From an uncultured Actinomycetota bacterium (lineage in GTDB: Bacteria > Actinomycetota > Thermoleophilia > RBG-16-64-13), in NCBI GenBank assembly GCA_963736705.1, contig CAVTPV010000005.1, positions 1,632,353-1,696,352 on the forward strand: a stretch of DNA of 64,000 bases, written 5' to 3'. Of the stretch, positions 46,150 through 50,305 are shown piece after piece. The notes beneath the pieces were generated by a model. That model made no database searches. It was not told the DNA's origin and saw only the letters and a list, made by a program, of their open reading frames with translations. Position numbers and translations under genes: made by a program. Within the stretch, counting starts at the first letter, position 1. Each line of letters begins with the position of its first letter.

Positions 46150-47178
46150 TCATCTGATGGCGAGAGCCACCATGGGGCCCCCGTTCTGGGTACGGTGAAG
46201 TGACTTGATGGTACGGACGGTGTGGCAGTTGGAGCACATGATCACCGTCTCGGTCTGGATGCCGTCCCTGCGGACGTCGATGCCTCTGAGGAAGCGCCCG
46301 CCCGTGACGGCCGTGGCCGAGAACAGGACGCCGTCGTGGGCCAGATCCGCCGCGGTGAGCGGCGTCTCCACGTCGTCGAAACCGGCGGCCCTGACCTGCT
46401 CCACTTGGATACGGGACACGGGCCAGAAGCGTGCCTTCATCTCTCCGCCGATGCAGTGCAAGGCGGCCGCGGCCAGCACGCCTTCTATCGACCCACCGAT
46501 GCCGATGGTCATGTGCACGCCGCTCTCCCGGAGAGCGGCGGCGATGCCGGCCGAGATATCCCCGTCAGGGATGAGCTTGAGCCGGGCGCCCGCGGCCCGG
46601 ACCTGCGCGGCCAGTTCCTCATGACGCGGCCTATCGAGCACCACGACCACGAGTTCCGAAGTGGGCAGGGCGAGGGCTTTGGCCACACCCCGGATGTTGT
46701 CCGCCACGGAGGCGTCTATGTCGACCGCCGCAGCCGCCTGGCCGGGGACGATCATCTTCTGCATGTACATCTCGGGCACTTGCATCAGGCTGCCCTGCGG
46801 CCCCGCGGCGATCATCGAGAGCGCTCCTTCAGCGCCCCGAGCCAGCGCGTTGACGGCCTCGAGCGGCTGGACGATGGCGTCCCAGAGCGGGGCCTCCTGG
46901 GCCGCCTCCTCCAGGTCGTCGCCGGCAGCGGCCGCGTCGCGCGGGCTGCCTCCCAGCACGTCTCCAGCCTGCAGACCGGCCGGCCCACGGCCGCTGCCCC
47001 GGCTGCCGACCACCCTGATCTTCAGCGGGCTCGCCGATAGGGCCTCTGCCATGGCAGCGCGCGCCGCCATCTCGCCCGCCAGCCCGTCGCCCCGGCCGAT
47101 CCACTCGGCGGCGCCCAGGGCGGCCGCTTCGGTCACGGCCACGAACCGCGTGCACATACAGCGAGCCTCAGCGTTCAC
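46150..47178 (-). CDS. glpX: GlpX-family (FBPase class II) protein with degenerate catalytic motifs
   Basis: TEAAA, WIGRGD, YMQK, LDRPRH, PDGD and GIGGSIEGV retained; GEGE and DPxEGT motifs altered. Confidence 0.85.
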   Translation of the reverse strand: MNAEARCMCTRFVAVTEAAALGAAEWIGRGDGLAGEMAARAAMAEALSASPLKIRVVGSRGSGRGPAGLQAGDVLGGSPRDAAAAGDDLEEAAQEAPLWDAIVQPLEAVNALARGAEGALSMIAAGPQGSLMQVPEMYMQKMIVPGQAAAAVDIDASVADNIRGVAKALALPTSELVVVVLDRPRHEELAAQVRAAGARLKLIPDGDISAGIAAALRESGVHMTIGIGGSIEGVLAAAALHCIGGEMKARFWPVSRIQVEQVRAAGFDDVETPLTAADLAHDGVLFSATAVTGGRFLRGIDVRRDGIQTETVIMCSNCHTVRTIKSLHRTQNGGPMVALAIR

Positions 47179-47190
47179 CGGCCTGCACCT

Positions 47191-48106
47191 TCAGTATGTC
47201 TCGATGACTCCGTACAGCGCGTCCACAACCGTCCCTACCGTGTCGTCGATGTTGACGTTGTCTACGATCAGCGTTCCTTCCGTCTCCGCCCGCTCCAGGA
47301 TGAAGTCCTGGATCTTGCGTATGTCCTCGAAGCCTTGCAGGTACCGGGCCAGCATCCGCCGCCCCGAGGTCTGCTGCTCTCGCACCAGGAAGTGGCTCCT
47401 GTGGAGCGCCTCTTCCTTCACCACCACCACCAGAGGCAGGAGCAGCGCGTCGGACAAGCCCTCCTGGCCCACCGGCAACTCCAGCATCCCGGGGACCATG
47501 TGGACCCCTTCGACCACCATGCTCGTCCGCTCCTTGATGGCCCTGTCGATGATGGCCCGCACTCCCACGTTCACCATCTCGACCTGCTCCATGAAACCCA
47601 GCAGCCGGGCATCCATGCCCGGCCCCAGCGGCATCCTCACAGCCGCCCCCGCCTCGTACGACGAGTAGTGCAGCGACGGCATGAGCTTCTCCGAGAAGAA
47701 GGCCCGCATCGCCTGCCGGATCGCGTCGGTGGAGATGGTCCTCACTATCCCCAGCCTCTGCGCCACCTGAGCCGCGATGGTGCTCTTGCCCACACCGGTC
47801 GCGCCCCCGATGAGCACGATCACCGGCCTGTCCTCGGCCGCCATCTGGTTCCAGATGCGATAGCGCCGCAGATACATCTGCTCCCCGCTATCGGCCAGCA
47901 CCTTCTCCACGAGCGACCGAAGATCGTCGATGCCCACCTCGCGCTCCGCCGCCTGCAGCAACTGCCGCTCGACGTCCATCGCCACCGCGTACGCCCGCTG
48001 GGGCGACAACCCCGTGGACGTCAGGGCCGTCGCCAGCAATCCCTTGGAGAACGGGACCTTGTGTCCCTCGTTCACCAACTGGATGGGCAGGCCCCTCCGG
48101 CTTCAT
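47191..48106 (-). CDS. 2-phosphoglycerate kinase with ATP-cone (frameshift near the start)
   Basis: PFSKGLLA, LIGGATGVGKST, STDAIRQAMR, LHYSSY, VEGVH; next to cpgS. Confidence 0.88.
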
Positions 48107-48108
48107 CG

Positions 48109-49519
48109 CTATCGCTCCTTGAACCTCTGCGCAGCCATCCCGGCCAGGTCCCGGGCCAATATCCGCGAGGGTGCCGCTCTCTTCTCGCAGACCCCCATCG
48201 GGCCCCACTTCCACCGGCATGTTGTCCATGAAGACCACCGGCAGGCCCCGCTCCGCCGCCTTCTCGGCCACCGTGTCGATGGCCGCCGCTTTGATCTCGG
48301 TGACCACCGTGTCCACCCGGTCCATCGCCTCACTCGCGAGGTCCTTCCGGAGCGCCTCCCGGTCGGCCAGACTCGTGGAGAACAACTCCACCCGGCATCC
48401 GCACCGCTCCTCCAGGTACCTCTTCAGCACATCCCGCTGCCTCGCCGGCGCCGTCGAGAAGACCCCTACTCTGCGGCCCTCGACGCTCTCCATGGGCCGC
48501 GGCCGGAAAACCACCGGCACCACCGGGATGCCCGGATGCACCGCCTCGATCGCCTCACGCACCGCCCGGACCTTCTCCGGCGAGGCCAGAGGCTCCTCCG
48601 CCATGGTCAGCACCACCGCGTCGCTGATGAGCAGCCGGTAGGTACCCAGATACCCGGCTATGTCATCCACCGCCTGGTGCGCCCCGGCTATCAGCAACCG
48701 TGCGTCCGCCGCCACCGGCGGCTGCGCCGCCCCGCTGCCCTCCAGGACGATCAACCCGGGCCGAAGGCTGTTGGCCAACTCGACGCCCTCGGCCACGTTC
48801 GAGACGAAGGGCTCGCCTGCCATGCCCCCGCCGCAGCGCCGGCACCCCACGGTGACGACCCCGCTGAGAGCCGCGTCCTCGAAGTAGTCCGAGGCTGCGT
48901 GCTTGCCCTGCCGGCTCCACGCCAGAAGGTCCTCGGCCGTCAGAGGCCTCTTGGTGCCGTCGACGACCTCCGGCTCGCCGGGCCCGCCGCGCCCCATGGC
49001 CACCACGACGACTCCCGGTCCCCCTTGCTGCACGGGGACGGCCGCTTGAAGGACCCGAGCCACATATCCGCTCAACGCGGTCTTCCCCACCCGCTTACCG
49101 GTACCGATGATGGAAAGCGAGGGAACGGCGCAAAGATGCGAAGAAGTCGTGGGACTGAAGTGGAAATCGGGGCCTACGTACCCCACCCCGCGCGCCAAGG
49201 ACGTGCTCGCCAGGCGGAAACGCTGCACATATCCTAGCACCGGTTCGTCGCTGAGGTCAACGACCACCTCAGGACGGTACCGGTCGATGGCCGCTTCAAG
49301 CCCGGCCGGCCAGCCGCCGGGGAACTCGTCGGCGAACATCACCGGCAGGCCGTAGAGGCCCTCAGCCTTCTCCTTGAGCCCCGTCCGCTCGATCTTCTCG
49401 GCCCCGCCCAGGAACAGGGCCGCCCGCAGTTCGTAGGTTTCGGCGGCATGCCGCAGGGCGTCCCGCACCACCGGAGGGTAGTGCTCGCCGTCGATGAGGA
49501 CTATCGCCGGGATGCTCAC
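48109..49519 (-). CDS. cpgS: Cyclic 2,3-diphosphoglycerate synthetase (frameshift near the C-terminus)
   Basis: IDGEHYPP, DLSDEPV, GTGKRVGKTA, AMGRGGP, HAASDYFEDA, GCRRCGGG, EGSGA, TEIKAAAID. Confidence 0.92.
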
Positions 49520-49549
49520 GCCGATGCCCCTCTCACGCCCGCGCCCCGC

Positions 49550-50305
49550 TCACCCTGTCGCCCGGTCGAACTCCACGATGGTCTCGGAACCGTGGAACGG
49601 GTAGTGCCGCGTGACCGTGATGTGCTCGCCCTTGATGTCCACCACGTTGTAGCAGGGCTTGGTGTCGCCGCGAAGCCGCAGCGACGCGACCGTCCCGGCG
49701 TTCACGATGTACATGTTCTCCAGGTGCCAGGCGTACGGCACGTGCTTGTGGCCCGACAGCACCAGGTCCACCCCGCACTCCATGAGCACCTCGAGCACGT
49801 CCCCGGCGTCGTTGACGATGTTGCGCTCCCGCCCCGTGCCCGGGATGGGGATCAGATGATGGTGGAGCATGAAGATCTTGATGTCGTCCGGGTTCTCCAT
49901 GAACGTCTCCCGGATCACCGGGTAGCGGTGCCGTCCGATGCGGCCGTAGTCCAGGTCCGGCTCGGTGGAGTCCACGCCCAGCAGCGTCACCCCGTTCTTG
50001 CGGATGTGGTTCTCCCTCGTGGCGAACAGGCGCTCGAAGTGCGCGTAGCCCACGTTGCGGCTGTCGTGGTTGCCCGGCACCACCAGGACGTCGGGGCAGG
50101 TGAGGCGGTCGAGATACTCCCGCGCCTCCCTGAACTCCTGGCGATAGCCCATGCTGGTCAGGTCACCCGTGACCACCACGATATCCGGCTTGAGGTCGTT
50201 CACCTCGACCAGCGCTCCGATCCAGCAGGTTGGGCACGAAGTACTGCGAGCCCAGATGCAGGTCGGACAGGTGAGCGATCACGCACGAGCGGGGGAGTCT
50301 CCCAT
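49550..50305 (-). CDS. Calcineurin-like metallophosphoesterase (CpdA/Icc-like), frameshifted near the start
   Basis: HLSDLH, TGDLT, PGNHD, LHHH, SGHKH. Confidence 0.88.

Follow-up and report, generated by a model that had tools for sequence, protein, structure and literature searches.

The stretch analyzed here, referred to as the window, comprises 64,000 nucleotides of a contig from an uncultured member of the Actinomycetota. On its minus strand lies a co-directional series of genes in the order argS, lysA, hom, a metallophosphoesterase gene (MPE), cpgS, a 2-phosphoglycerate kinase-like gene (2PGK), a GlpX-like gene, and rho. The coordinates of the central features are given in Table 1. As the original prediction had stated, MPE ends 30 bp ahead of cpgS on the same strand, with the MPE stop codon TGA at 49550-49552 and the cpgS start codon GTG at 49517-49519. 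A scan of the window for promoters and terminators returned sites no more frequent than chance gives.

Table 1. Features of the MPE-cpgS cluster in the window
Feature	Coordinates	Strand	Remarks
MPE gene as assembled	49550..50305	minus	Colinear with relatives' intact 251-codon genes after allowing two 1-base indels
Out-of-frame DxH stretch	50213..50296	minus	Extra base at 50213, missing base behind 50296
Spacer between MPE stop and cpgS start	49520..49549, 30 bp	minus	Purine-rich GAGAGGGG stretch ahead of the cpgS start
cpgS, cyclic 2,3-diphosphoglycerate synthetase	48109..49519	minus	PDB 8ORK, E 1.3e-113
2-phosphoglycerate kinase-like (2PGK)	47191..48078	minus	NF003259, E 3.9e-85; N-terminal ATP-cone domain
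Divergent GlpX-like (class II FBPase family)	46150..47178	minus	Pfam PF03320, E 7.2e-90

Judged by similarity, the gene downstream of MPE certainly encodes cyclic 2,3-diphosphoglycerate (cDPG) synthetase: its match to the solved Methanothermus fervidus enzyme (8ORK) spans residues 6 to 441, and alignments A1 and A3 show no variation in its P-loop, GxGKRxGKT. The assembled cpgS ORF extends to 47888, and the true C terminus lies in the ORF at 48109..48333; tblastn with P0003 places the frame change at residues 437 to 454. The 2PGK-like protein scores 285.9 bits against NF003259, under the 343-bit cut-off, and matches the Pfam ATP-cone model at E 5.5e-10. The GlpX-like protein reaches 202 bits against TIGR00330, under the 259-bit cut-off, and when aligned to 6AYY it is missing the GEGEKD and DPIDGT stretches that are canonical for class II FBPases; its activity might instead be that of a bisphosphoglycerate phosphatase. 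It is the sole PF03320 gene in genome G000. The same divergent form is found in L014 (8721-10682), L021 (5849-6886), and L149 (8524-9552); in families f1, f4, and f19, its neighbor is cpgS or 2PGK.

The original prediction had credited MPE with a complete metal site. All five motifs (SDLH, TGD, PGNHD, HHH, and GHKH) are encoded, but not in a single reading frame. The frame opened by ATG at 50305 runs into TGA at 50279-50281, the DxH motif (VIAHLSDLHLG) is readable only in another frame, from 50282, and after approximately 50213 the other four motifs return to the ATG frame, within a main frame of 217 amino acids. Two compensating 1-base indels bracket the DxH segment. In all 11 related loci (L002 to L012), MPE is an uninterrupted gene of 251 to 266 codons beginning MGD..RSCVIAHLSDLH, with all five motifs sharing one frame, and the 217-aa frame of the window is 94% identical to the orthologue in G004. 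Contigs from public short-read runs (90 to 99% alike) drop the base at 50213 in four of four runs and carry one extra base behind 50296 in the three of three runs that cover that place; these sites are exactly where the MPE frame leaves and returns. Because the relatives are intact and the short-read contigs lack both indels, the frame breaks are most likely assembly indel errors, not gene decay. Other genes on the minus strand between 44830 and 58465 are also split into adjacent frames (rho into 2 ORFs, hom into 3, lysA into 2, and argS into 3), and the 3′ end of cpgS is broken in the same manner near 48158. These split genes, together with a source genome that is 71% complete although in only 6 contigs, point to uncorrected indel errors across the assembly.

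The 217-aa frame matches Pfam Metallophos (PF00149) with 55.3 bits against a gathering cut-off of 21.5 bits, and profile similarity makes MPE an Icc/CpdA/GpdQ-like member of the calcineurin-like metallophosphoesterase superfamily. Among curated family models, no cut-off is reached by either the window frame or an intact orthologue: the two score 38.5 and 37.9 bits, respectively, against the CpdA/Icc cAMP phosphodiesterase model NF008359 (cut-off, 225 bits) and 35.5 and 36.3 bits against YfcE TIGR00040 (cut-off, 56.25 bits). A search of the ESM Atlas returned only unnamed metallophosphoesterase clusters. The metal motifs are invariant in all 19 aligned orthologues, which also have in common the family motifs PGNHDSRNVGY, DSxEPD, and PxPGTGRERN..DAGD. 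Many arginine and lysine residues are invariant as well (R83, R97, R125, R159, R161, K187, R210, and R212), which fits a polyanionic substrate. The intact orthologue contains no hydrophobic segment, with a maximum 19-residue Kyte-Doolittle mean of 1.29; peripheral membrane association is possible.

Across 301 evenly sampled Actinomycetota genomes, cpgS and MPE occur together in 172, cpgS alone in 3, MPE alone in 2, and neither in 124. The sample includes eleven unpublished genomes (G041, G057, G086, G118, G124, G153, G179, G205, G254, G267, and G295), all of which have both genes; without them the numbers are 161, 3, 2, and 124 of 290. Positions of both genes are listed for 122 genomes, and in 119 of these MPE is the next gene upstream of cpgS and runs in the same direction, with a median gap of 84 bp between match ends, and the three exceptions have the two genes split between contigs. 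Among 40 close relatives, 28 carry cpgS, and in 27 of these MPE is directly upstream. The co-occurrence and shared neighborhood anticipated for this phosphoesterase and cpgS are thus strongly evident in the phylum of the window.

Few genomes of the phylum depart from this pattern. Two of the three cpgS-only genomes are uninformative on the upstream gene because cpgS stands at a contig end. G058 and, from the set of close relatives, G016 have cpgS and 2PGK and truly lack MPE. A non-orthologous replacement of MPE in these two genomes was considered and rejected: upstream are a PPDK_N-like gene and an S49 peptidase gene, and no phosphate-ester hydrolases. The region upstream of cpgS in G058 (L150, 1963-6349) encodes an archaeal-type cofactor-independent phosphoglycerate mutase, an MGH1-like (mannosylglycerate hydrolase-like) glycosidase, and the S49 peptidase, a gene set that hints at a wider glycerate-solute neighborhood. 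In families f9 and f16, the only MPE copy that remains is far from cpgS (five of five genomes checked); in f9 it adjoins plsC and gpsA.

2PGK is present in 166 of 291 genomes of the phylum, in the same families as cpgS and MPE, and lies within the same cluster at 19 of 20 sampled loci. In family f19, MPE is beside cpgS in L021, and genomes G260 and G080 have 2PGK hundreds of kilobases from cpgS. The GlpX-like gene is present at 2 of the 20 loci and is a variable member. Of the module originally proposed, comprising the phosphoesterase, cpgS, 2PGK, and optionally GlpX, the pairing of MPE with cpgS holds, but the GlpX-like gene is not a constant part. Across the phylum, most of the 20 sampled loci also have the housekeeping genes hom and rho bordering the cluster, and some have lysA there. 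With this flanking conserved, much of the MPE-cpgS adjacency may be inherited; the joint loss of two adjacent genes is a single event, and related genomes are not independent observations. MPE might then be a passenger of a conserved block (lysA, hom ... MPE, cpgS, 2PGK, rho) with no functional link to its neighbors, its co-distribution with cpgS reflecting shared descent and single deletions that removed adjacent genes together. We consider this very improbable in view of the arrangement found in archaea.

A scan with the cpgS profile, using one genome per species, returned 80 loci. Fifteen of these are bacterial loci with the order MPE, cpgS, 2PGK, followed by rho in 14. Seven archaeal loci have a second architecture, in which cpgS and 2PGK are accompanied by a gene for a CBS-pair protein and a gene for a tandem two-domain MPE (L076, L079, L080, L085, L101, L104, and L111). 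They belong to Theionarchaea, three Thermococci, Natronoplasma, Saliniplasma, and an Aenigmatarchaeota genome. The metal ligands are complete in the first domain of the tandem protein and lost from the second. In L079 and L080, the CBS and tandem-MPE genes remain adjacent to cpgS-2PGK but are encoded on the other strand and point toward it. In the class of the Thermococcus genome G488 (121 genomes), 85 genomes have both genes, 1 has cpgS only, 13 have MPE only, and 22 have neither, and an active MPE domain lies at most 5 kb from cpgS in 74 of the 85; the anticipated co-occurrence therefore largely holds in this class as well. MPE is fixed beside cpgS in two large lineages. That the same linkage recurs in archaea of several phyla under a different gene order and domain architecture, and persists where the unit is on the opposite strand, argues against MPE being a passenger of the bacterial block.

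The remaining 58 of the 80 loci, most of them from Methanobacteriales, have no MPE in the stored stretch, and none was found within the stored flank of any examined cpgS locus of Methanobacteriales or Methanopyri. All five cpgS-bearing archaeal genomes without MPE at the cpgS locus have a full-length member of the family at another site (E 1e-66 to 1e-85). In the phylum of Methanobrevibacter (Methanobacteriota; 151 genomes), both genes occur in 132 genomes, cpgS only in 8, MPE only in 6, and neither in 5, so that MPE family members are present in 138. The two genes are unlinked there, and since both are near-universal, their co-occurrence profile in this phylum says little. The Methanobacteriales homologue directly follows the gene for NAC, the nascent-polypeptide-associated complex (L129, 7004-8103; L130, 6552-7654). 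In several genomes of the Methanobrevibacter phylum, MPE is 25 to 50 kb from cpgS on the same contig.

The inactive second domain and the CBS-pair partner of the archaeal form suggest regulation, and the spacing of the genes is tight or overlapping. These features would suit a regulatory or structural partner in a synthetase-hydrolase complex, as opposed to a free-standing enzyme. A prediction of the complex of cpgS (A3) with MPE (A2) scored 0.00 against a mark of 0.32, which says nothing either way. We regard such a role as extremely improbable: the invariant metal ligands make MPE very probably an active enzyme, and in methanogens, as in families f9 and f16, a long distance separates the two genes.

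Homologues of MPE are also present in organisms that lack cpgS. In the phylum of Natronoplasma (G487; 151 genomes), both genes occur in 1 genome, cpgS only in 0, MPE only in 36, and neither in 114. The homologues in these 37 genomes match at E ≤1e-30, down to 8e-91. The expectation that MPE would be specific to cpgS therefore fails in this phylum, where 36 of the 150 genomes without cpgS carry close homologues, and the MPE family is not specific to cDPG organisms. A tie of MPE to 2PGK in archaea without cpgS was also rejected: full-length 2PGK occurs in 1 of the 151 genomes, G487 itself, which is the only genome of the sample with cpgS and full-length 2PGK. The other 25 matches to 2PGK cover the kinase domain only and come mostly from genomes without MPE; only two genomes are in both the MPE and the 2PGK match lists, with the 2PGK kinase domain only. 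Conversely, cpgS is present in three unclassified bacteria and one Bacillota genome in which no MPE family member scores better than E 2e-16.

Several of the homologues have phosphate-related neighbors. They lie beside genes for RtcA (RNA 3′-phosphate cyclase) and CinA in L113, L114, and L127, beside PHO4/PhoU or a Na/Pi cotransporter with PhoU in L125 to L127, and inside a PhoU-PstB-PhoU block in two Asgard genomes (L145 and L146); in the genomes of all of these loci, cpgS is absent or elsewhere. Other neighbors in the Natronoplasma phylum are MntP and, upstream, an AMP-binding enzyme. Overall, the family looks like one of phosphodiester or phosphoanhydride hydrolases that are repeatedly beside phosphate-handling genes.

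These contexts are what would be expected of a phosphodiesterase or pyrophosphatase of broad specificity whose task is phosphate homeostasis or the turnover of 2′,3′-cyclic phosphates. Such an enzyme would be regulated jointly with the cDPG genes, perhaps in phosphate or osmotic stress, without acting on cDPG. The nearest characterized relatives, Rv0805/Icc and GpdQ (profile E 2.8e-14 and 9.1e-13, respectively), point in the same direction. So do the family-defining motifs TGRERN and DSxEPD, which are identical in cpgS-linked and unlinked members; in an alignment comparison, no residue was found that is common to both cpgS-linked groups and absent from the unlinked ones. Broad specificity nevertheless leaves unexplained the tight, long-lived coupling to cpgS (119 of 122 and 74 of 85 genomes), and also the near-absence of MPE without cpgS in the Actinomycetota (2 of 174 MPE genomes). 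We consider this explanation unlikely, though one to be taken seriously.

In the best tree of the family, all actinobacterial copies of MPE form one clade, with the non-adjacent copies nested inside it and those of f9 and f16 in a non-adjacent subclade, and the domains of the tandem proteins are placed outside this clade. An AU test did not reject a single clade for all cpgS-linked active domains (p-AU 0.164), so a single origin of the cpgS-linked MPE, followed by transfer, is possible, an outcome that also accords with a passenger gene. The best tree separates the two linkages, but as the AU test retains one clade, an independent origin of each is not claimed.

Taking the conserved metal ligands together with the linkage to cpgS, we infer a substrate, a reaction direction, and a mode of control for MPE. 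In our leading reading, which is plausible though still short of probable, MPE is the breakdown arm of the cDPG pool and opens the ring of cDPG to 2,3-diphosphoglycerate (2,3-DPG). The enzyme would be a soluble, binuclear-metal phosphohydrolase of the Icc/CpdA/GpdQ branch, co-transcribed with cpgS and in most cases also with 2PGK. A water molecule activated by metal would attack the cyclic pyrophosphate ring and yield 2,3-DPG, making the phosphate and carbon held in cDPG available for reuse, and the activity of MPE might be controlled, for instance through inhibition by phosphate. A synthetase and a hydrolase of a phosphate store in one operon have a precedent in ppk-ppx of Escherichia coli. 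Ring opening would be the most economical mechanism, since cDPG is a cyclic pyrophosphate, described as a solute with a degradation pattern that suits storage, and since a member of the superfamily opens cyclic ADP-ribose. A point against a cDPG hydrolase is that, made alongside the synthetase and left unregulated, it would drive a futile cycle at the expense of ATP.

The linkage to cpgS would serve equally well if MPE were a phosphatase of 2,3-DPG or of another side product, with the other step carried out by the divergent GlpX-like neighbor or by an unknown enzyme. The presence of 2PGK in the cluster at 19 of 20 sampled loci would accord with this, and the invariant basic residues fit any polyphosphorylated glycerate. 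Such a role is distinctly unlikely, however, given that the nearest relatives are diesterases, not monoesterases, and that the MPE family does not follow 2PGK in the Natronoplasma phylum.

Passages of two papers (PMC4302986 and PMC1224877) present cDPG as a major solute for carbon and phosphorus, with a degradation that fits a storage role, and the abstract of a 2023 paper (PMC10690619) restricts it to hyperthermophilic methanogens. By our counts (175 of 301 Actinomycetota, 140 of 151 genomes of the Methanobrevibacter phylum, and 86 of 121 genomes of the Thermococcus class), cpgS has a much broader distribution than published accounts give it; named members of the cluster come also from Cloacimonadota and Asgard archaea. 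The original prediction held that the gene for cDPG hydrolase was not firmly assigned, and this agrees with the searchable full-text literature, subscription journals and supplements aside, in which no paper assigning it was found. No hydrolase gene is named in passages of PMC10690619, PMC1224877, PMC7554672, PMC4302986, and the 2025 preprint 10.1101/2025.02.21.639460, and the word phosphoesterase is absent from PMC10690619 and from that preprint.

In a mostly uncultured bacterial phylum and in the Thermococci, then, cpgS is nearly always paired with one phosphoesterase family. A wider proposal, possible but somewhat unlikely, is that this family holds the long-missing cDPG hydrolase and that mesophilic Actinomycetota of soils and wetlands, along with Thermococci, make cDPG and turn it over as a regulated store of phosphate and carbon. 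If so, MPE, or in archaea the CBS-controlled tandem MPE, would be the release valve of the store, and the view of cDPG as confined to hyperthermophilic methanogens would be overturned. If MPE opens cDPG, the cycle that makes and degrades a major phosphate-rich solute can be approached by genetics, a tool is gained for controlling the yield of cDPG in production strains, and cDPG would look like a phosphate store besides a thermoprotectant. Should MPE not do so, the pairing would still represent a very conserved operon in need of explanation.

Among known systems, the cDPG hydrolase activity of Methanothermobacter thermautotrophicus, the only one reported and described as membrane-bound (Sastry et al. 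1992, as given in a passage of PMC1224877; cited in PMC10690619), corresponds to the reaction proposed for MPE, cDPG to 2,3-DPG, and an inhibition by phosphate would be in keeping with such a phosphohydrolase. In contrast to that activity, MPE has no membrane segment, which weakens the case for a cDPG hydrolase, and the methanogen homologues adjoin NAC, not cpgS. A mechanistic precedent for the opening of a cyclic pyrophosphate is offered by ADPRibase-Mn of the same superfamily, which, according to portions of PMC3407115 and PMC4334965, hydrolyzes phosphoanhydrides, including cyclic ADP-ribose, and 2′,3′-cAMP; unlike MPE, it is eukaryotic and acts on nucleotide substrates, and it has no detectable close sequence relation to MPE. 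By profile, the best solved relatives of MPE are Rv0805/Icc (CpdA; PDB 2HY1 and 3IB7; E 2.8e-14 and 3.6e-14), which resemble it in the fold signature of the superfamily and in all five metal motifs, whereas the invariant motifs PGTGRERN..DAGD, DSxEPD, and LRLRG are additional in MPE and the genomic context is different. GpdQ of Enterobacter aerogenes (2ZO9, 2DXL, and 3D03), likewise a binuclear phosphodiesterase of similar size, is the best single-sequence match among solved structures (E 4.4e-8; profile, 9.1e-13). GpdQ belongs to a phosphate-scavenging operon; its similarity to MPE is low, and MPE has no glycerophosphodiester genes nearby. The archaeal CBS and tandem-MPE system belongs to the same family, its first domain matching the orthologue profile at about 1e-60 to 1e-76, and has the same linkage to cpgS; it differs from the MPE of the window in its two fused domains, of which the second is inactive, in its separate CBS-pair partner, and in its position downstream of 2PGK.
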